A DNA stretch of 63,647 nt, counting the filler, from Folioceros fuciformis (Eukaryota): the NCBI GenBank assembly GCA_049999805.1. It is 4 parts of 4 records of this genome, joined end to end, with 100 filler letters (N's around TTAATTAATTAA, not from the genome) between each part and the next. Parts side by side here need not be neighbours in the genome. Positions count along the whole stretch, not along the records: positions 38,386 to 63,647 come from JBNGIO010005452.1; 3 more parts are not named here. One strand, given 5' to 3'. The notes beneath the pieces are model-generated. The model saw nothing but the letters and a program-made list of their open reading frames with translations. It ran no database searches and was not told where the DNA came from. The position numbers and the translations under genes were made by a program. Positions 10,393 to 63,647 of this stretch are shown here, piece by piece. How positions within the stretch are numbered: the first letter of the stretch is position 1; the number at the start of each line of letters is the position of its first letter.

Positions 10393-11245
10393 TGTCACGC
10401 TCTCGATTCCTAGACCCAGCTAGATTTCTAGGGTCGGATCCAGAATTCGTGAAGGAGCCGTCTTAGATAGGCTGTCTTTAGGTTCAATGTCCAGGGCCTA
10501 AGAAGGCTGGTCTTGNNNNNNNNNNNNNNNNNNNNNNNNNNNNNNNNNNNNNNNNNNNNNNNNNNNNNNNNNNNNNNNNNNNNNNNNNNNNNNNNNNNNN
10601 NNNNNNNNNNNNNNNAGGCTGTCTTTAGGTTCAATGTCCAGGGCCTAAGAAGGCTGGTCTTGGTTCAGGCCAAGAAGGCCCAAACAACAGACTCTAACTA
10701 CTTCCTAAGGTAAATCGGCAAATATCCTAATTATTCTAATTACCCTAGCTTAAGTAACGCTTTTAAATAGCTCATCTAAGTATACTTTATCTAACATGCC
10801 TTTTCTCATACCCGTTCAAGTTCACACCGTCATAATTGGGAATTGGGATTTTTGTGGGTACCCTATCTGGTGCCTTAGACCTAGCAGGGTTNNNNNNNNN
10901 NNNNNNNNNNNNNNNNNNNNNNNNNNNNNNNNNNNNNNNNNNNNNNNNNNNNNNNNNNNNNNNNNNNNNNNNNNNNNNNNNNNNNNNNNNNGTAAATTGG
11001 TAATTATCCTAATTATTCTAATTACCCTAGCTTAAGTGACGCCTACAAATAGCTCATTTAAGTATACTTTATCTAGCATGCCTTTTCTCATACCCGTTCG
11101 CGTTCGCACCGTTATAATCGAGAATCGGGATTTTTGTGGGTACCCTATCTGGTGCCTTAGACCTAGTAGGTTCCAGCCGTCTCTGCAGCGTCGTTCTCCT
11201 TGCTGGTGATCGTCACGGGCGTTCCTGCTCCTGGCGATCGTAACA
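10393..11245 (-). repeat. 3' LTR of the chromovirus (gapped, partly duplicated across N runs), preceded on the minus strand by the polypurine tract GGGGGAGAA
   Basis: The minus strand reads GGGGGAGAA-TGTTACG...GTGACA, and the sequence matches 16522-16830. Confidence 0.85.
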
Positions 11246-16830: not shown

Positions 16831-17239
16831 GTTCATGTAACCCAGGCCTGAACGTCTCTCCCTTCCCACGACAATCAGTTCCATTTTTGTTTCTCTTGGC
16901 CATCCATTCTAACCAAAAGGCGGCACTGCTTTAAGGATACAAGATTTGATTGGGTACGTAGCGTAGTCACCAAGAGAAGCAGTTGGACTCATTCTCAAAA
17001 AAGTTGTGAATCACCCTAGACCCTGAACAGGTCGCAGCTACATCACTCACGAGTGTGGAAAGAGAACAGTAACCGAACCAACTCAGTTTATGTACGAGCT
17101 GCGCATCATCGGCCTTGCTGAGACGTCGGCGGGAGAGGNNNNNNNNNNNNNNNNNNNNNNNNNNNNNNNNNNNNNNNNNNNNTTAATTAATTAANNNNNN
17201 NNNNNNNNNNNNNNNNNNNNNNNNNNNNNNNNNNNNNNA

Positions 17240-23450: not shown

Positions 23451-26400
23451 TCATAAGTCCGCTGGGGGCGGAGGAGGCGGGTCAGGTGGTGGCTCAGAAG
23501 GTAGCGGAGGGTACCCACGGGGAGAAACTGGTCCCTCTCCTTCCGTGTCCGAAGGATGAAGGTTACCTGACGAAGACAACGAGGCACCACAGCCAGCATT
23601 ATGAGCATGCGCCCCCGACAGGCGCGGTTCCTCCACGGGTGAAGTCCTTGAACTGCCAGATGGCAGGGACTTTTTAGCCCGAAACACTCCCCACAAAAAA
23701 GGATGGTCAAAACCTGTGGCCGCCAGCGATGTTGTATTAAAAACGTTTACGTCATACATGAAGGGGGAAAGGAGGACGGGAAAAACGAGTGCGGCCTTAC
23801 TTTGTTGTTGTTGAACTGGAAGCAGACGGGAGGGCAAGACAAAAAGGTCCGCGCCCTCTACCACAGCTCCCCTGAGCACTAGATCCCTTGCGTCCATGTG
23901 TTGAACGAGTTGGTTGTATCTACTTGCAGAGCTGCAATAACCAGAATTTTCCATACACTCTTGAGCAACAATTCAAAAGCATTGGACAAAAAAGGTCAAG
24001 AGGGTGACAAACAATACCTGGGCACTTTTGGGAAGAAATAGAAGGCGATCGAGTCATCCGATGGTTGCTGTTTCTGAAACTGTCTGGGCCAAGAATCTTT
24101 GTCGACAGCCCGTCGCACTTCTTCCAATTGAAGAACGTTCGGTAACCACGTGGCAACCTCACGAACTCGAGGAACAGCTTTGCTTGAAATATAAGCATCT
24201 ATGATTCCATATGACCGATCAGCTGCCCCCTTAACCAAAACTGCGAATCTGCCACTGAGAGAAAAAGCACAAACACATCTGTAAAGTGAGACATACCGGT
24301 ACTTGCCCATCAACTTGTTAAACGGAAGAGGCACATGATATTTACCTCCAAACAATATCACTTGGGCTAGCAGTTGTCTGACGCCCTTGAGCTCCAGCAT
24401 CCAATGGAGGTTGTGGAGGCTGTCGTCCAGGCCTTCGCAAATTCAACCTTCCACTCGAACAGTCTTCGGCTCCAGCATCCAATCGCTCGGCTTGCTGCCC
24501 AGGAATTTGCGTATTCAACCTTCCACTAGAGCTGTCTTCGGCTCCAGAATCCAATTGCTGTGGGTGCTGTCCAGGCCTTTGCAAACTCACTGCCCCACCA
24601 GAACTGTCTTCAGCCCCAACTTCCAATTGCTGACTGTGCTGCCGTAACCGTTGAAAGCCTAACCTCTGGAACCTCAAATGTTCGTCGTTGGCACCCTCCG
24701 TAGGCGATGGCAAAGCACTTACATTTGATGTAACCACTTTGGCCAAACTTGTTTCCCCCACGGAACTCAGTTTTGGCAAGGCATGCTGCGGGCTGGCTTT
24801 CTCAGACTCCATCACCATCGTCTGCCGAGGTTCTCGTAACCATGGACTTCTAGTCAGCTCCCCGGGACTGCTTCTTTGAGCTTCTTTTGCAGCGGAACTA
24901 AAAGCTTTCCATCGACTTAAGAGCTGATCAGGAGGTGCCTCATCCAAAGAAGCCTTTTTCTCCTCGGCAGTATCCTGCCCTACAGGCAAGCTTGATGATG
25001 TCGTAGATGGTAACTCTTTGGCTATTCCACCCACATTAGTCACTTCCAAGTGTTTTAGCAGATTCTCTGTCATACCACCCTTCGAGCTAGTAAGAGGTGC
25101 TGTAACTTGAATTGATCCGAACTGTACATTGGCACCTGCAACGTCCTCATAATCAAAGTCTGTGCTCTCTGCCTTCACATTTAAGTCAAGCCAATCTCGC
25201 TTTCTCCCTCCTTGGGCTCCTGTCACATTGCCTGAGTTTGTTACAGGTGTGCTGTCGGCTTGCAATTTCTTCCCTTTATCTTCTTCCAGCTTGACTATAC
25301 TATTGTCTGTTGGACTTGGCTTGGCTTGGCTAGGCAGGTCCAGTGGTTTGGCTTGGCTTCCATAATTTGCTACTCCTTTAACAAGAGAGCAACTGGATGC
25401 CAACCCACCATTTGTGGATTCCGACTGCGGTTTCACTTGCGCACCCCGCCCCTTGCAATCCTGATCATCAGCCGGAAGGGCAAGTTCTGCTTCAGCCTGT
25501 TCAGGGATGCTGGCAACGCTCTCCTCAGGGAAGTTCAAATCAATTGAACCAGTCAAATTCATCGTATTTTTGCAAAGTGGAACAGTCCCTACAGAATATC
25601 AAAACTTAAAAGATGAGCGCTCTTGAGAACAGAGATTCAAGCATGGTAAACCACATGCTACAGTACACAACATATCATTCCCAACAGTCGCAGAAAAGAA
25701 TCCGTTCTGCTAACAACAACTCTCATGAAAACTTCTTCTAACATTACAGCTGCACGTCAACAACGTATGATTGAAGGATGTCCCAAGCAAACGGATACGA
25801 GATGGCATCTACATAACCAGACCATACAAGATACGACCGCTCACACATATCTCAGGCTGCCCATCGCCCAGCAAAATAAACCACCAAGTTGTGAGGGCCT
25901 ACCTGGAGGCTGAAGAGCGTGAGGGTGAGAACTGGTTGATGCATCCATGTCTTGCCTTGGTCTGTGGTTGTCAGGAGCACAGCTCTGTGGAGCAACTGCT
26001 GATATGTGTCCACTGGCCGCATTTCTGGCTTCACCGTTGGGAATCCTGTCCTGATGCTTCCTCACGAAAGTAACAGCTCCTTGTTCATGCTTCTCCATGG
26101 TTGAGGTGGTGGAAGGGTTAGAGCTGTATCCAAGCTTTTGGTCAGCGATCTCCTTCCGAGTAGAGAGTTCAGACACCGACCTTAACATCTTCTTGGCCAC
26201 CTTTTCAGCAGGCTGGTTGGCTCCATTCAACGGGACCAGCAGCTGAGAATTGTCTGCCCTTGCTTTCTGCTCTACAGTAGACTGGGTGAGAGACCTACTC
26301 GAGACTCCCTTCACAAGTTTAGCAGACGCGATGGCAGAAGACACATCAGTTGCTGCCCGTACATGCCCTCCAGGTGCAAGGCGAGATGATGGTTGAGAAT

Positions 26401-28106
26401 GTCCAACTCCCCTGCTCCCTTCCTTACTTCTGCTTACGCTTTTATCGCCCTTCCACTGCATATCAACTTTGGTAGGCAAGAGAAACGACGGCATACCTTC
26501 ACCTGCTGACTTCATGCTTCCGACAGCCTTGATTCCAGAGGAAGCTTGTTGACTAGGAGAGGATAGGTTCGAAGTGGAGCGGATGACTCCGGCCATGCCA
26601 TCTGGTTTGGCAGATCTACTGCTTTCACCGTCATTTGAAGCACTAGGCCCAGATAAATCTCCCACTCTATGAGAGGACTGTCTTAGAGTCGATCTGGGAG
26701 ATGGTACCACAGGAGCATCGTGTCCACCGGACTTCACACCACTTCGAGCCCCAGAAGTGATTCCACCAGCCATCCCAACAGAAACAAGAGGGGTAATAAA
26801 CTTAACCTTCGACTCTATAGACTTCGAAGAGGTTTCCCGTTGCAAGGTTCGAACATGAAAACCGCCAGGGACCGGAGAAGAACTACTCCCTACAGCAGCT
26901 CTTTTGGTGGCAGGGCCTGCTGGTATTTCATCCATTGGTCTTTTCAACTGGCCATCCAGACTTGGAACATGTGGACTAACAGGAGAGCGAAAGTCATCCA
27001 CCGACCTCTTGGTAGACCCTGGAGTGCTCTCACCCCCGAGTTTCTTAGCTGACCCCTGCCATTCATCAACACCTTTCAAATTGGTGCTAGCGGAGGTTCC
27101 TTCAACAGCAGATCGCTTGTAAGGAGGGCCACTGCTTGCTTCTTCTATTGGCCGCTTTGTAGGTAACGCTTGAGTTCCTGGAACTCCTTTCACTGCTCTT
27201 CTTCCAAATGTTTTCTTTTCCAGCCTTGCTCCGATGCGTGAGCGCACATTTCCAATGCCACTAACTTTCTTGCCAGTGACCGTTGATGGGGGTCGCATGC
27301 CAATGTTCACAGCAGACAGTGCAGCTGGCTGTTCAGTCTGCTGCAGAGGGTTCTCCCTTTGACCTGTCTTGCAAGCTTCACAAATCCAGGCTTCAGGAAC
27401 TTCATCCAGGCGTTTTTGCATGCAATACCTGTTAGAAAGAGGACATAAATGATGTTAGCCACTCTGCTGAATCCACCAGAATACACCTTGTTGCAGTTGG
27501 AAATAAGAGTAGATTTAAGCCCGGGCTGCACATTTTCCACCAAAATCGGAACTACTGGAGCACGCAGCCAGTATCCCATATGCTGTGACTTCTGGGACAG
27601 TTATCAAATTCAATCTGAAGAGGAGAACTGATGTAGAATACAGTCAGACATGCCTAGCACTTGAAAAGATCTGGAAAAAACTTATGTGAATAAGGACAAA
27701 CAGGTCACTTGTAATCGATCCCAGAACATCTACACAAACGTGACAATCAGCACTGAGCAATAGGGCAACTCGTAACAAAGTCACGGACGACCTCTTTTCA
27801 AAGGAGGAACAAGAGGTATGAGATACTCACACATGCTCAGCACCCTCTCCACATATCGTGCAAACTGCCATGAGCTTCTCATAGCCAGCATCACCACAGA
27901 TGTCACAGACTTGTCCCTGCACCAGGATTTGCGAGAGTTAAGCAGGGCAGGGCTAATTGTTCTTAAAAAAGAATCGCATGCCCACAGAAAATGGACAGGC
28001 CACGAAAGGGCAAACGTGTACTGGAGATGAACATCATAACAACAGATGAAGTCCTACAGAAAGCAACACTAACGTCAAAGACTTCTGGTTCATTGGCCGC
28101 ATCCAT
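23451..28106 (-). CDS. PHD-finger protein with C-terminal SPOC-like domain (AIPP2/PAIPP2-like), multi-exon
   Basis: Spliced PHD VCDICGDAG...CTIC...AEHVYCM...WICEAC, long low-complexity exons, then the SPOC-like motifs AYISSKAVPRV, WPRQF...PSDDSIAFYFFP and FLWGVF. Confidence 0.87.
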
Positions 28107-36303: not shown

Positions 36304-37047
36304 CTACATTCCGCCCGTACCTGGAGGAGATTTGGGCTTCCCGTCATCAGGCGATGTGTCGGGGGTTGAATTTGAGCCTACCGACTCCTCGGGCTCCGTG
36401 TCTGACAGCGGATCAAGGGGCTCCTCCCAGCTCGAATCATCGTCGTCCCTGATGGCGGCCAACGGTACGCCAACAATCTCTGGATCCCGGGCGATGGCTG
36501 CCCTGACGACCCTAGCCTTGTGCCTCGGCGGGCTGTGCTCCTCCGATTCGATGCTCCTCTCCAGGTCCGGATCATGATCTCTCGGCGTCCAATCCGTGGA
36601 ATTCACATGCTCCAAGATCATCCTCTTGAGCCTGAGCCGCTTCCCGTGCTGCACATCCTTGAGAGCCTCCATCATCCTCTTTCCCACCTCCGTATGGAAG
36701 CTTTGCGATCGGGAAGACCTGCCTCCGTGAAGATGCTTGGCCACCTCCTTCCCGCTGAAACTCACCTTCCCAAACCAGAATTCCACTACCTCCTTCTCTA
36801 CGTCTACATGCACGATGTCCTCTGGCTGGATGTCAGCCGTGGGAGGCACCGTGCGATCGGGCAACTGTGGCACGCCGCCCTTCCGCTCCAGCCTTTCAAG
36901 TTCATGCTTCGCTACAGCCAGGAGAGCCTCCATGCGGTAGTTCCCCCGGCCCTTAGGGTACATGGCTATCGTGGCTGGCACAAACACCAAGAGCATCCGC
37001 GGATGGATCCGAGCCAACCCCTGGTCCTGCGGCTTCACTGCTCGCAA
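36304..37047 (-). other. Unassigned 247-codon GC-rich ORF inside an AT-flanked, transposon-like segment
   Basis: Open frame with an acidic/Pro-rich tail; I recognise no family motif. Confidence 0.3.
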
Positions 37048-37226
37048 TTATCGCACCACTGTTGCCAACCCCTCCTTCAACCTACAAACCTCCTAACGGC
37101 ATTTCTCCCAGCTCGCTCCTCAGACTCGTCACTTCAAGGACGGCGAAAATAAGAAGGCTCTCGGTGCGCACTGCAAGCGGCATGCATGCAAACCTCCGTA
37201 TTAATTCAAGTCGCGGCGCCGTCCTG

Positions 37227-37463
37227 TTTGTTTGCCGAGCTCAGAAATCATGTCCCGACTGCAGACCTTGTTTGCCGAGCTCAGGAGTCATGTCCCGACT
37301 GCAGAGCTTGTTTGCCAAGCTCAGAAATCATGTCCCGACTGCAGAGCTTGTTTGCCGAGCTCAGAAATCATGCCCCGACTGCTGAGCTTGTTTACCAAGC
37401 TCAGAAAGCATGTCCCGACTGCAGACCTTGTTTGCCAAGCTCAGGAATCATGTCCCGACGGCA
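37227..37463. repeat. Tandem repeat, 40-bp unit x~6
   Basis: TTTGCCGAGCTCAGAAATCATGTCCCGACTGCAGACCTTG starts at 37231, 37271, 37311, 37351, 37391 and 37431. Confidence 0.95.
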
Positions 37464-38385
37464 GAGGTACATTCTTGTGTAGGTCTGCATGTAGACCGGG
37501 TCCACGCTCTTGGATCGTGTAACAAGTCCTAGGTGCAGGTACCATCGTCAGCGACGTCCTTCACAATAGGATGGCACGGGAGCCTTTTTGAAATCCCGAC
37601 AAGCCGATGGTCCACTTCACAAATCGATTCGTGGTGCCCATCCGCTAGCCCGAAGCTGGAAGCTGGAAGCTGGAAGCTGGAGGGAGCGACGCCTGAACTG
37701 TCTCCTGTCCCTGGAGGAGACGATACCTCAAAGCCAACCACGGTGACGTAGAACATGCATATTCCATGTAACAATATAATACTATGAATTTAATAATTCT
37801 CTATAATTTATTTACTTTTACTACAAAAATATTATAAACAAACTCCACCTCTAAACTAGAGGGTTACCCATTACGGACGAACTGAGTTAAATAATCTTAA
37901 TTATAACATAGATTTTTGAAGCTGGAATGAGAATACTACATTGCTTACGAATGTAAATATATAAGGCAGTAAAATTAACATGAAAGTTGGGTGGTTGCCA
38001 TTTTATGGAACTAAAATAGCTTAGATATTGATATGCATTTAGGATTAAGGAATCAATTTTGGATATTCATGTGTCATGCATTAATTTCAAATTTTTTAGT
38101 TTCAAAGTACTACACAAATTATGTCTAGGATTAAGATGTGAAGGTATGCAAATTTTATCTAAGATTAGAATATAAAAGATAAAATTTATTTCAATTGCAC
38201 TATTCTTTGTTGTATTATTCTTAATACTTTCTTGCTATCACAAAGCACAAAGATGGTGTTGTGATGGTGTTGTCACAACATAGGGNNNNNNNNNNNNNNN
38301 NNNNNNNNNNNNNNNNNNNNNNNNNNNNNTTAATTAATTAANNNNNNNNNNNNNNNNNNNNNNNNNNNNNNNNNNNNNNNNNNNN

Positions 38386-41300
38386 ATGTCGTTTCTGGAA
38401 TGCAAATCATTACGCATCCTGATTTTGCATGGGATAAAGGACCCCTCTTTCATGAAAGCGTTGGTGCAGTCTTTGGAGAAAAATGCATCTTTGAATGAGC
38501 TCAGGTTTTTGTTTTGCTGGGAACTCGACGATGAGCTGTTCAGAGAGTTGATGCAGTCCCTCCAAAACAACACCACTTTACGGAAGATCTTGGTAGCGGG
38601 TACAAACTGGGCTAATGAGGGAAAGCAGGCCATCATCAACGCGACGTTGGCACGCAATGTTAGTCACAGGGCCTACTGGCCTTCGCTTTTGGAGGGGCAC
38701 GAGGCTGTGAAGCCCAGGGACGGGCGTCTTTTCCTGTGCGGTGCACCGTACGCAGGGAAAACCACTCTCCGAAACACCATGACCACCGCATGGCGCGCAT
38801 CGCAACCACACACATCACATTCTACAGGAGGCGCATCAGCTAACCAAGTCCAATTGCGGGAACAACTGTCTCTCGCTTGGAGACAGTTGTTCGGTAATGT
38901 TCCACGCACAGGAGCGGCATCACCCAGCCAGGTGGGTACTGTCCCCAGAACGGAAGGTATAGAAATCGAAGTGCTGCGCAACGACGACGAGATGGAAGTT
39001 ACCATTTGGGATTTGGCTGGACAAGCTCACTACCGAGTTCTGGAAGACTACTTGTTCCCCATCTTCAACCAGACATGTGTCTTCTTGTTCACATTCAACC
39101 CGTTTGATGCCGGCAAGCTTAGTGGACCCCTCCTGTCTACTGAAATGCTGGTGGACAAGTTCAGAAACAGCTTCAAGTTCTGGCTTAGGTTCATCCACTC
39201 TAATTCTCGCAACGTGGGTTCCTGTTTGCCTCGGGTATTTGTGGTTGTCACTCATAAGGATCAGATGCAGGCTCTGGAGGCTGAAACACTAGTCGAACTG
39301 CTGCAACCAGTCGTGGACGAGTTGGCCCAGGATTTTGAGGAGGTACTGCATGTTACGACAACCCATCTATTCTTCATGGATGCTCGATCTACGCACACCG
39401 TGCACCCCGTGCTGGAGGAACTATTCCAATCATTTCGACAGCTATTTGCACTTCCTCTGTTTTGGGTTCCGGAGCCATGCAACCGACTCAGTACTGTTTT
39501 GACACAGTGGGTATCTCGAAATCCAGCTGAGCCTATTGTCACCAAGGAGCGATGCAAAGAGTTGTTTCAACAAGATGATGAGCAACGCCTTCAAGCAATT
39601 CTTGCCTATCTCCACGATGCAGGCAGAGTCATCTGGTTCCAAGATGTAGATGCTGTGGTGGTGAATCCACAATGGATGAGTCATTCGTTTCTGGGCCGCC
39701 TCATCCAGCGCCTAGCCGGACAGCCTTGCTTGGGAAGATTCAATGATGGATTTGTTTCTGAACGTTTCCTGAATGGAACCTTGAAGGACATCCTCGACCA
39801 TATGCAAGTGCAGGGGATTCGTGTTGAATATCTGGTATTATTGATGAAGAGACTAAACTTGTGCTACGAACATCATGCCAATCGAAGGGCAGGATTCTTG
39901 GTTCCCTTGACCTTGGATGACGCTGAAGGTAAAGCTCTTCAAGGGAAACGACAGTTGGATTGGAATGGTGGGGCGGCGTCCAAGTACAGTTACGTAGGGA
40001 GGCGGCTACAATGCCGAGATGGAAGAAAAACGTTTCTCGGTCCAGGCTGCTTTCTAAGATTCCAGGTACGTTGCCTTCTGAGCTGTCTCTTTTGTTAGTC
40101 ATTTAACCTCTCTTGTGTTTCATGACATGGCCAATGCTTGTGCGTTGCAGGTCAAGTTACGACAGATCTTGTTGGATGGGCTGTGCGGTATGCAGTCTCA
40201 TCAGTATAGCATTGCGCGTAACTTGATCAGATTTAACTACAATGGTATGGACGTGTTTTTGGAGAGCAGTGGGGATATTTGGGACGAGACCGGGGACATT
40301 GGGGATCGTGTTGACATTTTGATGAGGTCACTCAAGAGCAAAGACGAAACGATCCAGTTTCTCCAGCAGAGCATTGTTTCGGAACTGAGAGCATTTTGTG
40401 CCTCTCCTGAAGGTAGTCCTGGAGTTGAACTAGTAGAAGGGATCATCAGGACTAAGTGCGTGGAGAAGCTCACACTGTGTATTCACCGGCACAGTCAATC
40501 CGTTCTCAACCAGCATTTGATGAAGTTCCTTCTAGTTCATCACAAAAGTCATCCAGTGCAGACTTCCTCCGGCTCGGATTGCTCCGATTATCAATGGTGC
40601 TGGCCAGAAATGCCTGAAGCTGGTCTATCCCTTGTATACGAGAAAGCCAGGGATCTGTTAAGTAGCGAAGAGGTGCAGTCTGCTTTGCAGCAGTGTGGGC
40701 CCCGTCCATCCCTCGACTCAACGAGTGGCCCTTCAGCCGGAACAAGTCAGCCACAGGCACCGTCTATACTGAAGTTAGGGAAGGAACCTTCATATCCAAA
40801 CGAAAGGGCGAAAGCAGGTCTCCGGAGAGGGCTTGCAATGATAGTCAGCATGGAAGACCACAGACATGGGGGACAGGTAGACAGAGGGCGACTTGAAGCA
40901 CTCTTCGAGATGTTGAATTTTGATACAGATATCGTGGTGAACGGTCCTAAGGAAGGGAAATCAAGGTTGAAAGCCCTTCTCAGGGTCCCTCGCCTAGCAG
41001 AAGACGAGTGCTTTCTGTTTTGCGTGAACGCCCATGGTGGGACTGATGAAGACGGAAGACAGTATGTTTGTTCAGGTGAAGCAGACAAGGCGGAGAAGCT
41101 TTATGTTGAAGAAGATATTTTGAAGCCCATTGCTGAATGCCAATATTTGGCACACAAGCCTAAGGTGGTTGTCATAAATGATAGTCGAGGCACTGGCAGT
41201 CTGGTGAGAAGCATGAAGGTACAAGGGTCGGGCCCCGCCGACCTTACCACTACCAGCAAAGCCCAGGGGTCAGGCGATGAGGGAAGCCAGGGTCTGAGCA

Positions 41301-41554
41301 AGAGAATTCGACCCTTGTACCAGGCGAAAGATTTTCTCATCGTCTTCTCTACCAGTCCTGAAGATTTATCCTTCAGAAATGTTAAGGAAGGCACAAACTT
41401 CATCATAGCTTTCATGGGAGCCATCTGTGAGCACTCTCGTACCGAAGATGTGGTGAGCATTCTAACAAGGGTGACTCGCGACGTCACCGAAATGCAGAAC
41501 GTGCAATGTCCCCAGGTCCTCACCACACTTACTGGAAAGCTATACTGGTCTTAA
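38386..41554 (+). CDS. TORNADO1-like LRR-Roc-COR protein with C-terminal caspase-like (peptidase C14) domain, copy A; 5'-truncated by a gap. Exons <38386-40065 and 40151-41554, at least 1027 aa
   Basis: Last LRRs, then Roc motifs GAPYAGKTT, RTEGIEI, WDLAGQ, VTHKD and MDAR. COR/TRN1-like motifs YVGRRLQC, FLRFQ|V, FCASPEGSPGV and ARDLLS. An 85-bp phase-0 GT-AG intron. Caspase motifs NAHGG and KPKVVVINDSRG. Confidence 0.9.
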
Positions 41555-43489: not shown

Positions 43490-43905
43490 GATGACGATAG
43501 CTTTCTGCTTTGCATTAATGGCATGGTGAGACTGAAGAAGATGGTTGAGTGTATGTTTGCTTAGGTGAAGCAGACAAGGCGGAGAAGCTTCGTGTTGAAG
43601 AAGTTATTTCGAAGCCTATCGCTGAATTTTGAAGGCGGGAATTTGACAAACAAGCCTAAGGTGGTTGTCATAAATGTTTGTCGATGCACTGGCAGTCTTG
43701 CCAAAAGCGTGAAAGCGCAGGGTTCAGGCACCGCCAACCTTGCCACTAGCAGCAAAGCCATGGGCTCAGACGTGGAGGAAAGCCAGGGTCCCAGCAAGAG
43801 AATTCGACCCCTGTATTATGCGAGCGCCTTTCTCACCGTTTACTCCACCAGTCCTAGAGACGAATCTTTGAGAGATGTCCAGAAAGGCCCAAACTTCATC
43901 ATAGG
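43490..43905 (+). pseudogene. Isolated caspase-domain relic paralogous to copies A and B
   Basis: Aligns by eye to about 41000-41410 (FLLCIN..HG, GEADKAEKL, KPKVVVINVCRCTG, SKRIRPLY, YSTSP, GPNFII), with stops and frameshifts. Confidence 0.88.
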
Positions 43906-45121
43906 TTTTGTTTTTGTATGTTTGCTTAGGTGAAGCAGACAACGCCGAGAAGCTGCGACGGCGTGCGGGAAGCCGCTGCGGGTGGGATCCTTCTGTACCT
44001 CGTTGCCCGTGGCTTAGGCCACCACGTGATCTCGTCGTCACTTGCTTAACAGAGAGAGATATGAGTGATGGTCATGGAGATCACCCCTCATGAAGTTAGG
44101 ATGAGGTCTTCAAGAGTTCAGACCGTTAGGAACCTTTTTGTTTTTATCGAATTTGGCCCGCTGCTGGAAGAGTGTCGGATCGGTGCATGCTAGTCTTCGG
44201 GACTGGAAATTCAATGCCAGAACTACAGCAGAAGGGAATAGTAGGATGAGGTTGATTGTGCGAAGCCGTGATGCAGACCTGATTTTGTCCCCGCGGCCCG
44301 GTGACGGAAATGCGTCAGGTGCATTTCAAGCCTGGCGAGCTTGCCAGTGCCACACAAGTAAGGCAGTGGAAAGCGTGCGCATCTGCCTGGTTTGAAGAAC
44401 TGCCTGGTGTCGCAGCCCTTGTGTTGCTTGTTCATGGTTTGACCTTTCGGCTTGCTTTCAGGTGGACCAAGGGCATGTCAGGCAGTGTGGAACAATTTCA
44501 TTGCGGACCGCACTACTGGCAAGGTATGATGCTCTGGTGGCTGAGGATTAGCTGTTGAATTCGAGAGCACCCAGGCACGGACTGACTCGCACTTAGTGCA
44601 ATGCAAAACGAGGAGACCTGGTTGTTTTGAATCCTGGTCGAATCAGGTGCAGTGCAGATAAGCTGCCCTCAACCGGTCATTCAGCCAGGGACTCTACCCT
44701 CAATCGGAGGAAAGAGTCCAGGGACGGCGGAAAGCTGAAGGAACGCGAGCGAGCGTTGTACATGTAACGATGTCCATGGATGCAGTGACCTTTCCAATGA
44801 TGGACTGGCTGGTGACAGGGAAATTTGTGGCATGGAATGCACTGGTTCCTGGGAATGCAACGAAGGGGCTCGGCTGTTCTGTATGGACGTTTGTTCTGTC
44901 TGGACAGAATGCATCAAGAGGGCCTGATTTTGGCGGAGTATGGCACTTCTGCGTGCATTCTCAATGGCTTTGCAAGCTCTGGTGCCTTGACGAAGATCAG
45001 GGAGCCGCACGGAATGTGCCTGAGGAGTGTTGTTTGAGGATCCGTGGTGGAAGAAGAGCCTGCAAGTGCCACATGCGCAGCAGCTGAAGATGCGGCGTCT
45101 TTCTAGGATGGCAGGGACTGG

Positions 45122-48100
45122 TTGTCCCCCGCGTCCCTGTGCTGGTACGGAAGGGGAGGAGTTTCGGGGAGGGGCGTGCGGCGATACCTGGCGCATCCCT
45201 CTGTTGCTCGTTCCTGCTCCCTGTATCGCGGCGTGGCAGGCGAGCTTGGCCCTGTCGGGCCTGGAGGATACCAAGTGGGTGTGATGCCTGAAACAGTGAG
45301 CAAGCTGTGTGAGGAGGGTCGGCTCAAGGAGGCTGTTGAGGCTTTGGGAATTCTGGTGCAAGTAGGCTGGCACGTTTCCAAGTCCCTCGTGTATACGGTG
45401 CTCAGGGGGTGTGTTGAACAGAAGGATCTTCTTCTAGGGCGCCGTGTGCACGCTTTCACGGTTCAGAAGGGGTACCAGTCGGACACTTTCCTGGGCAACC
45501 ACGTTCTGCGATTGTACGATTTTCATGGCAGATTGCAGGACGCGATGGATGTGTTCACCGTTGTTGCCAGTCCAGATGCCTTCATGTGGTCTTCCATAAT
45601 TTCGGCGCATGTGTAACGGGGACTGCACAGGGAGGCTATAGAGCTTTATCGTAGGATGCGCAGGTCGGGTGTGGAGCCCGATAGCCATGTTTTCGTGGCT
45701 GCCCTCCAGGCATGTGGAAAGGGGGAAGATTTGATGGCTGTCCAGGAGCTGCATGCCGAAGTATTGGCCAGTGGGTTTGGGCGGGATTTGTTTGTTTGTA
45801 ATTGCCTGGTGGATGTGTATGGGAAGTGTGGCAGGCTGCGAGAGGCTAGAAGGGTGTTTGACGGACTCGTTGAGAAGGACGTTGTGACGTGGACTACCAT
45901 GATATCCGGGTACTCCCAGCAGGGCATGGGCAGGAAGCATTTCTTGTCTACAGTGCTATGCTGGAAGGACGGGTGGCTGTACCCAGCTCTGTGACTTATG
46001 TCTGCCTCCTGCAGGCATGTGCAAGTGTGGACCCCCCTGCTCTGGTGACGGGGAAGCAGCTCCATGAGCTAATCAGAGCACAAGGACATCTGGCTAATGT
46101 GTCTGTAGCCAATAGCTTGGTGAACATGTATGCGAAGTGTGGCAGCCTAGAGGATGCCCACAGATTGTTTTGTGATATGGGTCAGAAAGACGTGGTGACG
46201 TGGACTGCTCTAGTTGCAGGGTATTCCTTACAGGGCAAGGGCAAGGGCCAGGAGGCCCTTCAGCTCTACAGTGCCATGCAGGCAGAAGGCATCTCTGTAC
46301 CAAATTCAGTGACATTCGCATGTCTCCTGCAGGTATGTGCAAGTGTGGGCACACTGGCCTTAGATAAGGGGAGAGATCTTCATGCTCAAATCCGAGAAGA
46401 AGGACATTTGGCTGATGTGTCAGTAGCCAATACTTTGATAAGCATGTACGCAAGGTGTGGCAACCTAGAAGATGCTCGGCATGTATTTGATGGACTCGTG
46501 GAGACGAACGTTGTGACGGGGAGCGCCATGATAGCTGCGTATTCACAGGGGTGTATGGGACAGGAAGCTCTTGATCTTTACAGGGTGATGAAGGAAGAAG
46601 GTACTGTCACAGCCAATTGTGTGACGTTTGTGTCCCTGCTGCAGGCATGTGCAAGTTTGGGCATACCAGTAAAGGTCACTGGAGAGTAGCTTCATGCGGA
46701 GATAAGGGAAAGAGGGTTTGACGGGGATCTATTCTTGGCCAATAGTTTAGTCAACATGTATGCAAAGAGTGGCAGCTTGAAAGACGCGAAGAGAGTGTTT
46801 GACGCATCCGAAAGGAAAGATGTGATGATTTGGACCACTCTACTCGCAGAATATTCCCAGCCGGGCATGGGCCAGGAAGCCCTTGCTCTTTACGGAGCAA
46901 TGCAAGAGGAAGGCATTGTTGCACCTGATGCTGTGACATTTGTGTGCCTCCTGCACGCATGTGCAAGTGTGGGATCCCCAGCTTTGGAGATGGGGAAGCA
47001 GCTTCATGTGCAAATTACAGAACAAGGGTACCAAGCTGATGTATCTGTAGCCAACAGTTTGGTGAACATGTATGCAAAGTGCGGCAGTCTGGAGGATGCC
47101 CAGGAAGTGTTTGATGGACTTGGTGACAAAGATGTGGTGACATGGACTGCTCTGGTTTCAGGATACGCACAGCAGGGCATGGGCAAGGAAGCCCTTCAAG
47201 TGTACGGTGCCATGGAAGAAGAGGGCATAGCTGTGCCAATTTCTGTGACACTGACGTGCCTCCTGCAGGCCTGTGCGTGTGTGGAGGCCTTGGCTTTGGA
47301 GATGGGGAAGCAGCTGCACACCCAAACTCAAGAACAAGGGCTTGAAGCTGATGTGAACGTAGCCAACAGTTTGGTGAACATGTACTCAAAGTGTGGTAGC
47401 CTAGATGATGCGTAGAGGGTGTTTGGCAGATTAGATCGGAAACATGTAGTGACGTGGACAGTTCTCATTGCAGGATATTCACGGCAAGGAATGGGCGTCA
47501 AGGCCTTTAGCGTTTACCGTGCTATGCAAGAGGATGGGGTAGCTGTGCCTGATTGTGTCACATTAGTGTGCTTCCTGCAGGCGTGTGCAAATGTGGCAGC
47601 TTTGCAGTTGAGAAGGCAGCTACCTGTGCGGATCAAACAGCAAGGATTTGAAGCTGATGTAATTGTCGCTGGCAGTTTGATTAACATGTATGCAAAGTGG
47701 GGAAGCATGCTTGAAGCACGGCAGGTGTTCGATTCATTGTCTGACAAAAACACCGTTGCCTGGAACGGACTGATTGCAGGATACAGCCACCAAGGAGATA
47801 GTGAAGAGGTTTTGGACTTGCTTCGCAGAATGAGAGTGGACGGTATACTGCCAGACATCATAACGTTCCTTGGTGTGCTGACAGTCTGTGGTCATACAGG
47901 TCAAGTGAGCAAGGGGTGGGAGTACTTCGAAAGCATGAGCAGCCACAGTGGCATCACCCCAACGGTGGAGCACTACGCATGTATGGTAGGTCTCCTGGGC
48001 CGTGCAGGCCGACTGGACGAGGCACAAGGCCTGGTCAGGAACATGCATGTACCACCTGATGCCACAGTTTGGCACACTCTGTTGGGGGCCGCTCAAAAGT

Positions 48101-48330
48101 GGAGGAACGTGGAGGTTGGACGCCATGCTTTCAAGCAAGCAGTGAAGCTAGACAAGAAAGATGCAGCAGCCTACGTGTTGATGTCCAACATATACACCAG
48201 AGCCGAAATGTGGGAGCAAGCACAGGCCTTGCAGAGGAAGAGGGTGAGAATTAAGTAAGGCATGAAGCAGACGGGACAAAGGTGGTGGACAAACATGGAC
48301 GGCCCTGTGCACAGTTTTTGTTGTTGGGGA
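45122..48330 (+). pseudogene. PLS-class pentatricopeptide repeat gene with E/E+ domain, disrupted
   Basis: Many NSLVNMYAKCGSLEDA / DVVTWT repeats; E domain HYACMVGLLGRAG...AAYVLMSNIY. Stops at 45614, 46687, 47413 and 48256, and a frameshift near 45930. Confidence 0.92.
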
Positions 48331-53924: not shown

Positions 53925-54455
53925 GCTGAGCTGAGCTGAGGTGGTGGGATTCGACGCTCCACAAATCTACCTTCCATGTGAAGGAAGGCATCTCTCCTGC
54001 ACGGAGCAGTGGAGCAACAGTCATGTTCTGTCCTGTTGTGACAAGTGGGGGGAGAGAAGGAAGGCTTGGTGTCTTGTCTAGCCTTGTCTGGTCTCCCAAT
54101 CCATTCTGTTGTGTGTGAGCTTTTGCCCTTGCTACAAAGCAGGTCAGGTCAGGTTATGCAGACAAGCATTCTTCATGTTTGCTCGTATTGGGAAGCCCAG
54201 CCCAGCTCTGCATAGCACATCACGGCATGGAGGGACTGAAGAAGCCTGTACCTGCTGGATAGCCCGGATCCCTAAAATCATCCCAAGGCACCCAATGCAC
54301 ATGACCGCAGGAGCGATTGATGCAATCCCTGACCCTATCCCCATCCGCCAACCTTCTGCTCAAACCACCCGCCGGAAAAGCTGCAACAGCTGCTGGAAGA
54401 TCTGGCAGGGCACCGCCTTGACCCACCTCCCCGCCTTGCAAGCAAAGGAGTACGG
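53925..54455 (+). pseudogene. Relic promoter/5' end of another TRN1-like/caspase paralog
   Basis: Matches 58766-58980 and 59617-59825, including CCGGAAAAGCTGCAACAGCTGCTGG (PEKLQQLL) and ALTHLPALQAKEYG versus ALTKLPDLDGEEYG. Confidence 0.8.
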
Positions 54456-57764: not shown

Positions 57765-59264
57765 GCTACTGCGCAAGGAAGATGACGATGACGAGGTCGG
57801 TTGTGGAATTTTCCTTTGAACAACAATCTATTCATTTATGCGCGACAGCGGCCATGAGTGGTGTCTTAAAAAAGAACTCTGACACCTTCCCGCTGTGCTC
57901 TGTGGTATGCCATACCGGTGACTGAAATGCGTCAGGTGCATTTCGAGCCTGAAGAGCTTGCCAGTGCCAGTGCCACACAAGTAATGCAGGGGAAAGCGTG
58001 CGCGCATCTGCCTAGTTTGAACAACGGTCGCCTCGCAGCCCTTGTGTTGCTTGTTCATGGTTTGATCTTTCGGCTTGCTTTGAGGGTGACCAAGGGCACG
58101 TCAGGCAGTGTGGGACAAATTCATTGCGGAAAGCACTCACTACTTGCAAGGAATGGTGCTCTGGTGGTGGCTGAGGATTAGCTGTTGAATTCGAGAGCAC
58201 CCAGGCACGGACTGCCACACAGCCAAACGCGAGACATGGTGACAACCCTATCTCACCACTCAGGTGCAATCCGAGTGACTCGCTGATCGGACTTGGCACG
58301 AGAACAAGACTTGGGCAACACTGCCGGCAGGGCACCAAGCAGGCGGGGCAAGACTTTGCGTCCAGCGCCAACAAAAGCAGGCAAGACGCGAGCTCTCAGA
58401 GGAAGGGTTTCCCAGCGCGCGGTCACACTAGCCCACTTTGCTTAGCTCACCTTTTCTTCTACCCTTCTCGGCTTTTTAGTCAAACCAGCCAACAACCGCA
58501 AGATCGTGACGCATTTACTGCATTTTGAACTTAGAAAAATATTTTAAGGCTACGAACTTTAAATACATATTTATTTTCTGTCATTCCTAATTTCAAATAC
58601 CTACATTATATATATATATATATATATCATACACAATTATTCATTCAAAATAAATTCACGAAATTTGGCCCTTGCGCGCTTGGACCGGACAAACCGCGTT
58701 CCCCCTGATAAGTCCAAAGGAAGGGTCATGACCATGACTGGGCTAGGAACCTTGCTGACCAGTGAGAGCTGAGCTGAGCTGACCTGAGCTGAGGTGGGTC
58801 CTAGCGCCCACAAAGCTGCTGTGCTGTACCTGCCTTCCATGTAAAGGAAGGCATCTTTGGTGCATGTGGTGTTGTAACAAGTAGGGGGTAGGGGCGACAG
58901 AATTGGAAGGAGGGTTGGAAGCAGCAGCTGAGAAAAGTTCAGCCTTGGGTGTCCTGTCGTGTGGTGTCGTGTCTTGTCCACGATGCTGGGCGGCCCAGTG
59001 AGTCCACAACACCTAGGTAGGTGTGCTTTGATAAACGACTGAGCCCGCACAAGTACAGTATGTATGGAGGAGGAATATCCACCGGTCACAGACAAAGCCA
59101 CAGACACAGAGAGAGAGAAAGCGTGGGAAAGGGGAAAAGCCAAGCACAAGCACAAGCACGCTCACACGTTGATGAGTGGAGGGAGAGCGAGTGAGACCTG
59201 GCAGCTCTTTTGCCGGCTACCACACAACCCTCTCATCTCGGACATTCAAGAGACCTTGTATGGT

Positions 59265-59640
59265 GTCCCTATCCTTATCCAGTGTGTGTGCTGTGAGGTT
59301 GTTGTCCCCTAGCCTATCCGTGTCTGGTGTTCCAATCGGGATCTTCCTCAAGTGTGTATGATGTGAGGTTGTGGTCCCCTAGCCCATCCGTGTCTGGTGT
59401 TCCAATCGGGATCTTCCTCGAGTGTGCGTGTCCTGTGAGATTGATGTCACCGTCCCCTAGCCTATCCTTGTGTGGCCTGCCAATCCTCCTCGAGTGTGTT
59501 TTGGTAGGTTGCTGGCTGCTGGCCTATCCTCGTCTGGTGTCCCAACACTCCGCGCGTGTGTGCTTGTGAGTTGGCTGTCCCGTAGCCTGTCCTTGTCTGG
59601 TGTCGCAATCCTCGAGTGTGTGCTTTGAGGTTGCTGCCCC
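59265..59640. repeat. Degenerate tandem repeat, ~70-bp unit x5-6
   Basis: GTGTG...GTGAGGTTG...TCCCCTAGCCTATCCGTGTCTGGTGTTCCAATCGGGATCTTCCTC recurs. Confidence 0.8.
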
Positions 59641-59713
59641 TGCTACAAAACGGATGATACATACAATCCGTTCATCATATTTGCTTGCATTGGGAAGCGC
59701 AGCTTAGCACAGC

Positions 59714-62700
59714 ATGGCGGAGCAGGAGGACTATGACTGCCGGAAAAGCTGCAACAGCTGCTGGCAGATCTGGAAGGGCACGCCTTGACCAAACTCCCCG
59801 ACTTGGACGGAGAGGAGTACGGCGATTTCTTCAGAGAGGGAGCTTCAACGAGCACGGATGGCAGGCACTGGCTGGTGCGCAAGCGGGTATTGACAGCTAT
59901 TGGCCAGTGCCGCAGTCTCCGCGGCGGCCTGAAGATATCTGAACGGTGGGGGGTCGGCATCGGTCGGGAGGATGAATGCGCGATTCTGTTGGAGGGCCTG
60001 GCATCCAACCCTTCCCTGGAAGCTCTCCATCTGTTTGGGTGCTCAGGTTTTGGAAGGCTGGCGGGTTGCAAGACCCTGGGCCAGCTTATTGCTTCCAGTG
60101 GCAGCTTGCGACGGCTGAAGGCACGCGCGATCATGCTTGATGCCGCTGGACTTGGTGCCCTGGTCGATGGCTTCAACCAGGATTCTGCCCTGGAGTATTT
60201 GAACCTAGGCTATAACAAAGTGGGAGATGGTGAAGGGGCACAGCACCTGGCTCGCATGCTGGCCACCGCTCCCGGTCTCAATGTCCTGAATCTGCGCCAT
60301 ACCGAAATGGATGAGGCGGGAGCCCAGTGTATTGCAAACGCTCTTCCGCTCTGTGCCTCGCTGCGGGAGCTTTCCTTGGATGATAACTATCGGGATGAGC
60401 GTAATGCAGTTAGGGGTTCTGCACAGGGCAACCCGGGGCCCCTGAGCACTGTGTTGAAACTGGCTTTCACCCGTGCTGATACTAAGGCTGATGCTCCCAT
60501 ATCTGGGGTCACCAAGCTGACGTTGGATATCGGGAACAGAGAGGAGGCAGGCCTGGCCGACGCGCTGGCCGGAATGTTGCGCACCAACGATTGTATCACG
60601 GACCTTTCGATCAGCGGTTTTGTTGTCAATTTCGGCCTGGACGTCTGGCACCACAACTCCACCTTCTCCATACTTAAGTTCTCCGACTATGAGGGTGACG
60701 AGTCGTTAAGTGAATTTTCGATGTCGTTTCTGGAATGCAAATCATTAGGCAACCTGTTTTTGGAAGAGATTAGGTGGCCGTCTTTCATGAAAGCGTTGGT
60801 GCAGCCTTTGGCGAAAAATACATCTTTGAATGAGTTGTATATTCGGTATTGCTGGAGACTTGACGATGAGCTGTTCAAAGAATTGATGCAGTCCCTCCAA
60901 GTCAACACCACTTTACAGAAGATCCAGATAACGGACACAAACTGGGGGAGAGAGGGAAAGCAGGCCATCATCAACGCGACGTTGGCAAGCAATGTTATTC
61001 ACAGGGCCTACTGGCCTTTGCTTTTGGAGGGGCAAGAGGCTGTGAAGACCAGGGTCGGCCGCCTTTTCCTGTGCGGTGCACCTTACGCAGGGAAGACCAC
61101 TCCCCTAAACACCATGATCACCGCATGGCGCGCATCACTCAACCTGTCGCTTCTTGTCACCCTCCGGGAACAACTATCTTCAGCTTGGGGATGGATATGT
61201 TCCTGCAGCCGTTTCGGAACTGTGCCGAGAACGGAAGGCATAGAAATCGAGGTGCTGCGCAACGACGACGAGATGGAAGTTACTATTTGGGATCTGGCTG
61301 GACAAGCTCACCACCGAGCTCCGCAAGACTACTTGTTCCCAAGCTTTAACCAGACACGTGTCTTCCTGTTCACATTCAACCCACTTGGTGCCCACAAGCC
61401 TGGCGAACCCCTTCCGTCCGATGAAATGCTGCTGGACACGTTCAGAAACGGCTTCGAGTTTTGGCTTAGATTCAACCACTCCAATTCTCGCAACGTGGGT
61501 TCCTGTTTGCCTCGGGTATTTGTGGTTGTCACTCATATGCATCGGATGGAGGATCTGCACGCGAAATTACTGGTTGGTCTGCTGCAACCAATTGTGGAAG
61601 ACTTGGCCAAGATTTTCGAGGAGGTACTTCTTATCAGGACAACGCCTTTCTTCATGGATGCTCGATCTAAACAAACTGTGCAGCCTTTTCTGGAGCAGCT
61701 ATTCCAATCATTGCAAGAGCTATTTGCGCTTCCTCTGTTTTGGGTTCCGCAGGCGTGCAATCGATTGAGTGCTGCTTTGACTCACTGGGTATCTCAAAAT
61801 CCAGGTCAGCCTCTGGTGACGAAGGAGAGATGCGAAAAGCTGTATAACGCACATGATGAGCAACGCTTTCAAGCAATTCTTGCCTATCTGCACAATGCAG
61901 GCCGGGTCATCTGGTTCCAAGATGCAGATGTAGATGCTGTGGTGGTAAATCCACACTGGATCAGTCATTCATTCCTGGGCCGCCTCATTCAGCGCCTAGC
62001 AGGACAGCCTTCCTTGGGGAGGTCGCGAGACCGTGGATTTGTTGCTGAAGACCTCATCAAAGACACCTTGGCCCGGATCCTCAAGGACACGCACGTGGCC
62101 GACAGGATTCGTGTTGAAGATTTGGTGTCATTGATGATGAGACAGACTGAACTTGTGCTATCGGGATGATGCGAATCCAAGACCTGGATTCTTCGTTCCC
62201 TTCACCTTGGATGACGCCGAAGGTAAAGCTCTTCGTGGGGAACGACAGCTACACTGGGACTGGGAAATGGCGGGCCAGTACAATCACGTGGGCAGGCGGC
62301 TACAATGCCGAGATGAAACCAAGACGTTTCTCGGTCCAGGCTTCTTTCCAAGATTCCAAGTATGTTACCTTGTGAACTGTCTCTGTGATCTGTCTCTGTG
62401 ATTTATCCTCTCTTGGGTTTCCTGACAATATCGATAACGGTTGTGCATTGCAGGTCAAGTTACGACAGATCTTGATCGATGGGCTCTCCGGTATGGAGTC
62501 TCATCAATATCGCATTGCCCGTAACTTGATAGAATTTAAGTATGATGGTATGGATATATTCTAGGAGAGTAGCGGGGATATTGGGGAGGAGACCGGGGAC
62601 ATTGGCGATCGTGTGGACATTTTGATGAGGTCCCTCAGGAGCAAGGACGATACGATTCACTTTCTCCAGAAGCAGATTGTTGCGGAGTTGAGAACATTTT

Positions 62701-63647
62701 GTGCTTCTCCTGAAGGTAGTCCTGGAGTTCAGCTTGTAGAAGGGATCATCAGGACCGAGTGTGTAGAGAAGCTCACACCTTGTATTTACCGACACAATCA
62801 GTCAGTTCTCACACACAGGTTGATGGAGTCCTTTTTCAAAAGCCCGCAGACCTCGCAGATTTCCCCCGGTTCGGATCTGCCACCTCACTTCCACGTCTGG
62901 CCAGCTGCAGAAAGGCCTGAAGCCAGTCTACGCTGTGCACAAGAGGATGCCAGAAACTTCTTAAGTAGCGGTGAGGTTGAAAATGTTTTGAAGACGTGGC
63001 GGACAGGACTGGCGCTCAATGCAACAAGTGGACTTTCAGCTGGGTCAAGTCACTCACAGGGATCGCCTCACATGGAGTCAGTGCAGGAACTATCATATCC
63101 AAACCGAAGGGTGAAAGTAGGTGAGCGGAGAGGTCTGGCAATAGTTGTAAGTATGGAAGCAAACAGACCTGGTGGAGCGGCAGACAGGGGGCGACTTCAC
63201 GCTCTGCTCGAGAACTTGAAGTTTGATACAGACATCGTCGTGAACCGTCCACCTGAGGAAGTGAAATCAATGTTGGGAAAACTTCTCAGGGTCCGTCACC
63301 TAGCACAAGACGACTGCTTTCTGTTTTGCTTGAACGCCCATGGTGGGACTGATGAAGAAGGAAGGCAGTATGTTTGCTCAGGTGAAGCAGACAAGGCGGA
63401 GAAGCTTTATGTTTTTTTTTTTTTTTTGAAGCCCATCGCTGAATGCCAGTATTTGGCACACAAGCCTAAGGTGGTTGTCATAAATGCTTGTCGAGGAACT
63501 GGCCGTCTTGTCAAAGGCATGAAAGCACAGGGGTCGGGCCCCGCCGACCTTGTCACTACCAGCAAAGTCGAGGAGTCAGAGGTTGAGGGAAGCCAGGGTC
63601 TCAACAAGAGAACTCGACCCTTGTATCAGGCGAAAGATATTCTCACC
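59714..63647 (+). pseudogene. TORNADO1-like LRR-Roc-COR-caspase gene, copy B (disrupted; runs off the window end). Exons approx 59714-62359 and 62454->63647
   Basis: RI-like LRRs, GAPYAGKTT, WDLAGQ and the same intron position (FPRFQ|VKL). Caspase NAHGG (His 63339) and KPKVVVINACRG (Cys 63489). Lesions: frameshift near 59735, 4-bp CAGA insertion near 62143, TAG at 62562. Confidence 0.9.

Follow-up and report, generated by a model that had tools for sequence, protein, structure and literature searches.

Can a single plant protein combine a sensor, a GTPase switch and a caspase-type protease? The question is raised by a 63,647-nt stretch of DNA from Folioceros fuciformis (the window, which here means the whole stretch), in which an initial annotation made from the sequence alone had recognised two copies, A and B, of a gene with leucine-rich repeats (LRRs), a Roc GTPase domain, a COR region and a C-terminal caspase domain. 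To our knowledge, the textbook view is that plants lack animal-type caspases. We find that the LRR–Roc–COR–caspase layout is real and that it belongs to a multi-copy bryophyte family. The reading that we favour, at about even odds (roughly 0.5), is that copies A and B are two paralogues, accompanied by a further fragment, of a bryophyte LRR–Roc–COR–linker–caspase family whose product is a dimer-activated protease of defence or cell death.

The window is a stitched sequence. It contains 12 runs of N, among them three artificial joins and six runs of 100 N; the joins, each composed of 44 N, TTAATTAATTAA and 44 N, are identical and lie at 10093-10192, 17139-17238 and 38286-38385, so that adjacency across these joins and the 100-N gaps is not established. 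Copy A, on the plus strand, begins directly after the last join, which removes its 5′ part. It is covered by two open frames, 38386-40098 and 40082-41554. As had been predicted, splicing 40065 to 40151 gives a single frame (38386-40065 plus 40151-41554; 560 + 467 codons), through removal of an 85-nt, phase 0 intron (40066-40150) with its GT at 40066-40067 and its AG at 40149-40150, and this frame stays open for 1027 codons until the stop codon at 41552-41554. Domain searches, motifs and relatives place the LRR tail, Roc and COR-A in exon 1 (38386-40065, 560 codons). The coding part of exon 2 (40151-41551, 467 codons) comprises a conserved region at the position of COR-B (40151-40690), with a homologous region in bryophyte Roco proteins; a stop-free linker rich in Ser, Gly and Pro, running from the COR region to the caspase (40691-40825); and a Peptidase_C14 domain delimited by Pfam, structure and alignments (40826-41554, stop codon included). 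Since its ATG (38386) follows immediately on the join and the equivalent Met is internal in copy B, copy A is 5′-truncated and retains only the last few LRRs. Exons 1 and 2 were queried separately in every search and never joined.

Copy B, also on the plus strand, is 79-87% identical to copy A and, by searches and alignment, has the layout and intron that the initial annotation had given it. Its equivalent of exon 1 (59737-62359) encodes a long LRR region of the ribonuclease inhibitor (RI) type, Roc and COR-A; a 94-nt GT..AG intron (62360-62453) occupies a site homologous to that of the copy A intron; and the equivalent of exon 2 (62454-63647), with the COR-B-like region, linker and caspase, runs past the end of the window. 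A third copy of the caspase domain, on the plus strand at 43490-43954, is a stop-ridden fragment 79% identical to 41000-41412. Separately, the 5′ end of copy B is partly duplicated at 54082-54455 (69-88% identity to 59591-59822), and an 86% repeat joins 57915-58214 to 44298-44584, so that sequence near the Roco-caspase copies has evidently been duplicated locally.

The caspase domain of about 240 amino acids that had been claimed for the C-terminus is present at full length. Pfam Peptidase_C14 matched copy A exon 2 at 79.6 bits (cut-off 21.4; E-value 3.8e-22), spanning profile positions 1-233 of 233 and exon 2 residues 226-465. When the PDB was searched by sequence, the best 60 of 163 matches (E<=1) were caspases or CED-3 only, with no metacaspase among them; Dronc scored 3.7e-9 and caspase-8 4.1e-8. 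An AlphaFold2 model of the domain, built from 31 sequences (predicted local distance difference test score, pLDDT, 85.7; predicted template-modelling score, pTM, 0.83), had a six-strand core and a disordered loop (146-171) at the place of the caspase inter-subunit linker. Among the Foldseek matches in the PDB listed through rank 49 there were animal caspases only and no metacaspases (caspase-8, 9.5e-16; template-modelling scores about 0.65-0.77), and the nearest ESM Atlas clusters were caspase-7-like (Mollusca), DED/caspase (Chordata) and Dronc (Arthropoda), with scores of 0.93-0.95. The C14 fold, with its p20-like and p10-like parts, is thus present by sequence, Foldseek and ESM Atlas alike, and the PDB neighbours listed for it are caspases. 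Below the bryophyte proteins, the named matches to the caspase domain were insect and mollusc caspases. In a prokaryote genome collection, a method that detects close relatives only gave 121 pattern matches to the caspase domain, none of them confirmed.

The family consensus reads K-P-K-V-F-x-V-N-A-C-R-G around the nucleophile and N-A-H-G-G around the histidine. All ten aligned relatives have the catalytic His, and seven have the Cys in its N-A-C-R-G context. Two further residues, the arginines of the R-x-G and S-x-R motifs, are conserved among the family relatives and have arginines as their aligned counterparts in Dronc, caspase-1 and a reconstructed ancestral caspase-3/6/7; we take them to correspond to R179 and R341 in caspase numbering. 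In caspases these two arginines bind the P1 aspartate, whereas metacaspase pockets are acidic. Judged from alignments and models, the domain is of the animal caspase type and not a metacaspase, and the aligned pocket residues suggest a basic S1 pocket that would confer specificity for Asp. The domain was also predicted to form a homodimer. The prediction scored 0.71, with 0.00 for the best of three controls, although dimers of caspases have already been solved and so the pass may reflect memory or likeness only. Runs agreed in at least 54% of contacts, the partner pLDDT was at least 74, and the predicted interface consisted of the last beta-strand (residues 249-259) plus a helix (228-242). In calibration, 21 of 30 solved microbial homodimers attained that mark and none of 23 solved single chains did; the corresponding eukaryotic figures were 17 of 29 and none of 30.

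Upstream of the caspase, exon 1 of copy A carries a Roc domain followed directly by COR-A. The Roc motifs comprise G1 (GAPYAGKT, residue 119, around 38740), an RTEG with the switch-I Thr (residue 188), G3 (DLAGQ, residue 209, around 39010) and THKD (near residue 290, around 39250), all on the plus strand; when 20 bryophyte relatives were aligned with copy A, these four motifs showed little or no variation. The Roc part of the family profile matched the Roco chains of Chlorobium tepidum (3dpu, 8e-9; 6hlu, 1e-6) and also 4wnr (3e-10). COR-A (PF16095) was found at about 39529-39909, with an E-value of 1.2e-10 and 41.9 bits against a cut-off of 35.3 over residues 382-508. A conserved region of 180 residues opens exon 2 at the position of COR-B, an identity that we assign to it only weakly. 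The N-terminal 400 positions of the family profile matched ribonuclease inhibitor (1.6e-18) together with LRRs from NLRP5, NLRP7, NLRP1 and NOD2-like chains. No Pfam match to NB-ARC or NACHT was obtained in copy A or B, and the switch is the Roc GTPase. The N-terminal half of the initial annotation therefore holds in part: of the G1-G5 set, G1 to G4 were found and are near-invariant in relatives, but the Pfam score for Roc falls short; copy B and the family profile show RI-type LRRs, but copy A keeps only the last few; and COR-A is secure where the COR-B assignment is weak.

Is the joining of these parts a property of the gene itself? The COR-B-like region, linker and caspase are given as one stop-free open reading frame (ORF) for copies A and B, although copy B has a stop at 62562-62564 within its COR-B-like region. 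A search of 1.84 billion representative proteins returned 378 matches at E<=1e-3, and the best matches to exon 2 were two contig ORFs (P0005 and P0006) and one hornwort transcript. P0005 covers query residues 47-447 in a single stretch, P0006 matches in two stretches, and the Nothoceros aenigmaticus transcript P0012 (cluster-mate P0155) covers residues 54-334; all of these cross the junction from the COR-B-like region to the caspase, so the architecture proposed by the initial annotation recurs elsewhere at this point. The sequence is also present in sequencing runs of two different studies. When contigs of four runs were mapped, three of the runs each gave 321-450 short contigs over 3.5 kb at 90-99% identity, a sign that paralogues are numerous. 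In run X3, two contigs pass directly from 40062/40064 to 40148/40151, omitting 85 nt with GT..AG ends, and the same run yielded a near-identical piece with one difference in 155 nt (40583-40737); no intron-skipping contig occurred in the DNA runs X1 and X2. These junctions lend splicing modest support only, because the RNA nature of run X3 is a guess and the sides of the joints are 23 and 30 nt long. Another contig of run X3, of low depth and with a side of 28 nt, skips 39343-39507 within exon 1 (165 nt, GT..AG). The omitted stretch amounts to 55 codons, so the frame is kept, but the last part of Roc and the first part of COR-A are lost; a paralogue with an alternative intron might account for it.

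The scaffold on which the caspase sits has relatives in other bryophytes. For exon 1, 24 long relatives were listed, all of them bryophyte (Marchantia, Riccia, Sphagnum and Ceratodon), with 26-35% identity over 80-99% of its length. Liverwort Roco proteins align along the whole of exon 1 and are colinear with copy A over the intron, as in P0016 (residues 638-1150, then 1148-1313). Four proteins of Riccia sorocarpa (P0001-P0004) matched exon 2 only within the COR-B-like part, and three of these four have hydrolase-like C-terminal regions, all below the Pfam cut-offs. In Marchantia polymorpha, the P0018 cluster (Mp6g00860, Mp6g00900 and MARPO_0052s0114) and, in M. paleacea, P0064 are hydrolase-caspase proteins with a caspase-type site N-S-C-R-E; the Pfam hydrolase match passes its cut-off in P0064 and narrowly misses it in P0018. 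A Riccia fluitans protein of 1916 amino acids (P0242) contains a Roco match, NB-ARC and a hydrolase in one gene model, which could reflect either a genuine fusion or the merging of adjacent receptor genes during annotation. In bryophytes, LRR–Roc–COR, hydrolase, caspase and NB-ARC thus co-occur in various pairs. Compared with the bryophyte Roco proteins, copy A has a homologous and intron-colinear scaffold but differs in its C-terminus, the long relatives listed being without Peptidase_C14 and those of Riccia ending in hydrolase-like tails. The Marchantia alpha/beta-hydrolase-caspase proteins, in contrast, have the closest named caspase domains (31-37% identity over a full-length C14); they place this type of caspase in another bryophyte lineage, with a hydrolase instead of LRR–Roc–COR as the N-terminal partner. 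Their gene identifiers were unmentioned in the literature searched.

The architecture is not new to biology. Bacterial AP-GTPase (Roc)–COR proteins, as described by Kaur et al (2021; eLife, PMC8195603), couple rapidly evolving LRRs at the N-terminus to one of at least 24 different C-terminal domains, TIR, caspase and trypsin among them, and a role in countering invaders has been predicted for them; Roc–COR is also found in cyanobacterial and verrucomicrobial systems in the portion seen of a further report (Kaur et al, 2020; PMC7159879). The Folioceros gene shares with the bacterial LRR–Roc–COR proteins the order of domains, a caspase effector and paralogues with varied effectors, and the bryophyte family likewise has caspase or hydrolase-like tails. 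It differs from them in being eukaryotic, with a spliceosomal intron, plant genes as neighbours and a caspase nearest to those of animals; indeed, intron, neighbours and bryophyte relatives all speak against the gene being encoded in a prokaryote. We found no description of LRR–Roc–COR–caspase in plants in the literature on Roco proteins, TORNADO1, caspases and C14 of plants or bryophytes, in keeping with the initial annotation, which knew of none there. The word 'caspase' was likewise absent from the sections seen of the Marchantia pangenome and bryophyte super-pangenome papers, whose supplements may list such families. Caspases are described as animal-restricted, with plants having metacaspases only, in the consulted parts of three sources (PMC5756287, PMC10896300 and PMC12521494).

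With caspase-8, caspase-9 and Dronc the domain has in common the fold, the x-A-C-R-G context, the S1 arginines and a predicted homodimer through a beta-strand, and the logic would resemble that of the apoptosome and the inflammasome, where a sensor-driven oligomer activates caspases by proximity. Unlike animal initiator caspases, it has no CARD, DED or PYD adaptor and is fused to a GTPase switch rather than recruited to a STAND ATPase; it also has Asn for the Gln of QACRG, and copy A is without the Cys. Plant metacaspases (C14B) share the Pfam family Peptidase_C14 and the clan but not the caspase-type pocket arginines. Catalytically dead homologues of caspases exist, c-FLIP being one, and others are the pseudo-orthocaspases, as recorded in the portion seen of PMC6426788. 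Copy A and P0005 resemble these in keeping the fold without the nucleophile, although copy A may merely be decaying.

These comparisons fit a mechanism that follows the order of the domains. The LRR would sense a ligand or perturbation, and the Roc–COR module would shift its nucleotide state and dimer geometry. Two caspase domains could then meet at their last beta-strand, in the way that initiator caspases do, and a protease with an Asp-type S1 pocket would turn on and cleave substrates in defence or cell death. Of the sensor–switch–effector protein first envisaged, the order LRR, Roc–COR and caspase fold and the predicted homodimer are upheld, but no intact active copy is present locally. 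The proposed role in immunity or cell death fared less well: it is drawn from the architecture. The context is nonetheless immune-like, in that the LRR profile resembles RI, NLRP and NOD proteins, Riccia relatives have hydrolase-like tails and Marchantia has hydrolase-caspase fusions. An immune-receptor function has been suggested for LRR-ROCO genes of brown algae (PMC3341825 and PMC11378527), and the available text of Chia et al (2024; PMC11218826) describes hydrolase N-terminal domains of non-flowering-plant nucleotide-binding LRR receptors (NLRs) as executioners that induce cell death.

What the family provides is a land-plant case in which a sensor and a GTPase switch are wired directly to a caspase-type domain with caspase-type pocket residues. 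Should some members be active, they would give a testable tie of cell death in plants to caspase chemistry, a further class of intracellular receptor in addition to NLRs, and a parallel to bacterial Roco conflict systems that bears on the movement, or re-assembly, of immune modules across kingdoms. A bolder version of this reading is possible, and we put it forward tentatively: bryophytes may possess genuine Asp-directed, animal-type caspases that serve as executioners of Roco and hydrolase proteins, the Roco form acting as a single-chain, inflammasome-like receptor of immunity or cell death independent of NLRs and the Cys-less copies as regulators like c-FLIP. Were that so, the view of caspases as exclusive to animals would be wrong. 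The Marchantia hydrolase-caspase genes belong to a tractable model organism, and the caspase domain is therefore testable there.

Several observations count against a dimer-activated protease of this kind. On copy A exon 1 the Pfam Roc profile reached an E-value of 7.9e-5 and 23.3 bits, under its cut-off of 27. Pfam COR-B matched 2 of 33 family members, below cut-off (best E 1e-4), and gave no match on copy A, although the exon-wise query may split the domain; a model of the COR-B-like region (AlphaFold2, pLDDT 87.8) had no Foldseek match to a PDB fold at E<=0.001. PF00656 was found in none of the 24 long Roc–COR relatives listed and C14 in none of seven scanned COR-region matches (five of them long Roco proteins), and no full-length annotated Roco-caspase protein was present among the relatives found. 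At the catalytic site of copy A, where the His codon is 41033-41035, the expected Cys is replaced by Ser (AGT, 41183-41185) through a single base change, and the neighbouring Ala has become Asp: copy A reads AAT GAT AGT CGA GGC (N-D-S-R-G), as against AAT GCT TGT CGA GGA (N-A-C-R-G) in copy B. The His-Cys dyad is accordingly broken in copy A and kept in copy B, with its TGT at 63489-63491. The relative P0005 is also without the catalytic Cys. Copy B itself has a 4-nt insertion near 62138 that breaks the frame and the in-frame stop at 62562-62564; in addition, its Roc G4 is degenerate (THMH), a T16 run at about 63411 stands in place of conserved codons, and its first 180 or so codons have no in-frame ATG. 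The window thus holds no intact, Cys-bearing, full-length copy. To judge by their sequences, neither local copy looks like an intact active protease, and the notion of the local gene as a working protease had to be given up. Copy A is a gene in decay or else serves, without catalytic activity, as a partner or regulator; copy B, unless the assembly is wrong about its frameshift and stop, is a pseudogene.

These defects suit another explanation, in which the Roco-caspase genes at the locus, and perhaps throughout the species, are decaying relics, that is non-functional pseudogenes of a birth-and-death family. Besides the lesions in both copies, the fragment at 43490-43954 and the partial duplicate of the copy B 5′ end at 54082-54455 favour it. 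We compared copies A and B by the Nei-Gojobori method, and the ratios of non-synonymous to synonymous substitution rates (dN/dS) divide between the two views. They were close to 1 in the LRR tail (1.12) and in the linker (1.05, 45 codons), as expected of relics, but 0.49 in Roc, 0.46 in COR-A and 0.38 in the COR-B-like region, with 0.64 in the caspase. The pattern points to past constraint on the core domains and is no proof of present function; a dN/dS of about 0.5 equally fits relaxed constraint, a further point against an active protease. Against wholesale decay stand the 1027 open codons of copy A, the dN/dS of 0.38-0.49 in Roc and COR, the near-identical pieces and intron-skipping joints of run X3, and the dyad kept in seven of ten relatives from other bryophytes. 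On balance we consider that the genes are unlikely to be relics only, though this is the most serious of the competing explanations.

A working gene need not act in defence. TORNADO1 (TRN1) of angiosperms is a Roco protein with a developmental role, and the family could by analogy encode a TRN1-like signalling protein of development or housekeeping, its caspase being a regulated processing protease outside defence and cell death. The Roc–COR part does belong to a broad bryophyte Roco family, whose listed members mostly have no recognised effector domain. We nevertheless think this improbable, since the many divergent copies, the pseudogenes, the variable C-termini and the fast-evolving LRR tail resemble receptor families in conflict, and no protein named TRN1 occurred among the relatives listed, a comparison by name made without a phylogeny.

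An artefact (two genes read as one, a chimeric assembly or a contaminant) is very improbable and was rejected, for although the stretch is stitched, with copy A starting at one of its joins, that danger, which the initial annotation had itself raised, is largely refuted by the stop-free ORF given for both copies, by the independent junctions in contig ORFs and Nothoceros transcripts, by the N-free segment 38386-63647 with PPR genes bearing an E motif between copies A and B, by the spliceosomal intron and the presence of the sequence in runs of two studies, and by the search of the prokaryote collection, in which no closely related caspase domain turned up within the reach of that method. A 2.1-kb metagenome contig (L001), found with P0014, was dropped as uninformative about origin; at 959-1609 it has an exon-like ORF with the caspase motifs S-H-G and N-A-C-Q-G, and looks like animal DNA.

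Elsewhere in the window, mTERF and Yip1 genes and a Ty3 element lie upstream of copy A. The mTERF ORF is 53% identical to its counterpart in Sphagnum, 51% in Physcomitrium, 47% in Marchantia and 39% in Ceratopteris, which places the host among land plants of bryophyte grade. Remnants of Ty3/gypsy type (gag, aspartic protease and an integrase SH3), interrupted by stops, occupy 11213-15206 on the minus strand. Two long minus-strand ORFs of 418 and 537 amino acids, at 24342-25598 and 25841-27454, have no Pfam family; in the ESM Atlas the latter gave low-recognition matches, the best (0.88) to a cluster resembling plant chromatin-remodelling proteins. Just upstream of the join that truncates copy A, tandem coding-like units at 36957-37522 (+) encode a peptide repeat like AELRNHVPTAELVCRAQKSCPDCR, unrelated to the Roco gene by tblastn. 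Between the two copies, at 45874-48258 (+), three abutting PPR ORFs lie in one frame, the last with an E motif, and are split by in-frame stops at 46687-46689 and 47413-47415; they make up a PLS-type PPR gene with two premature stops, which is either a pseudogene or the product of error.

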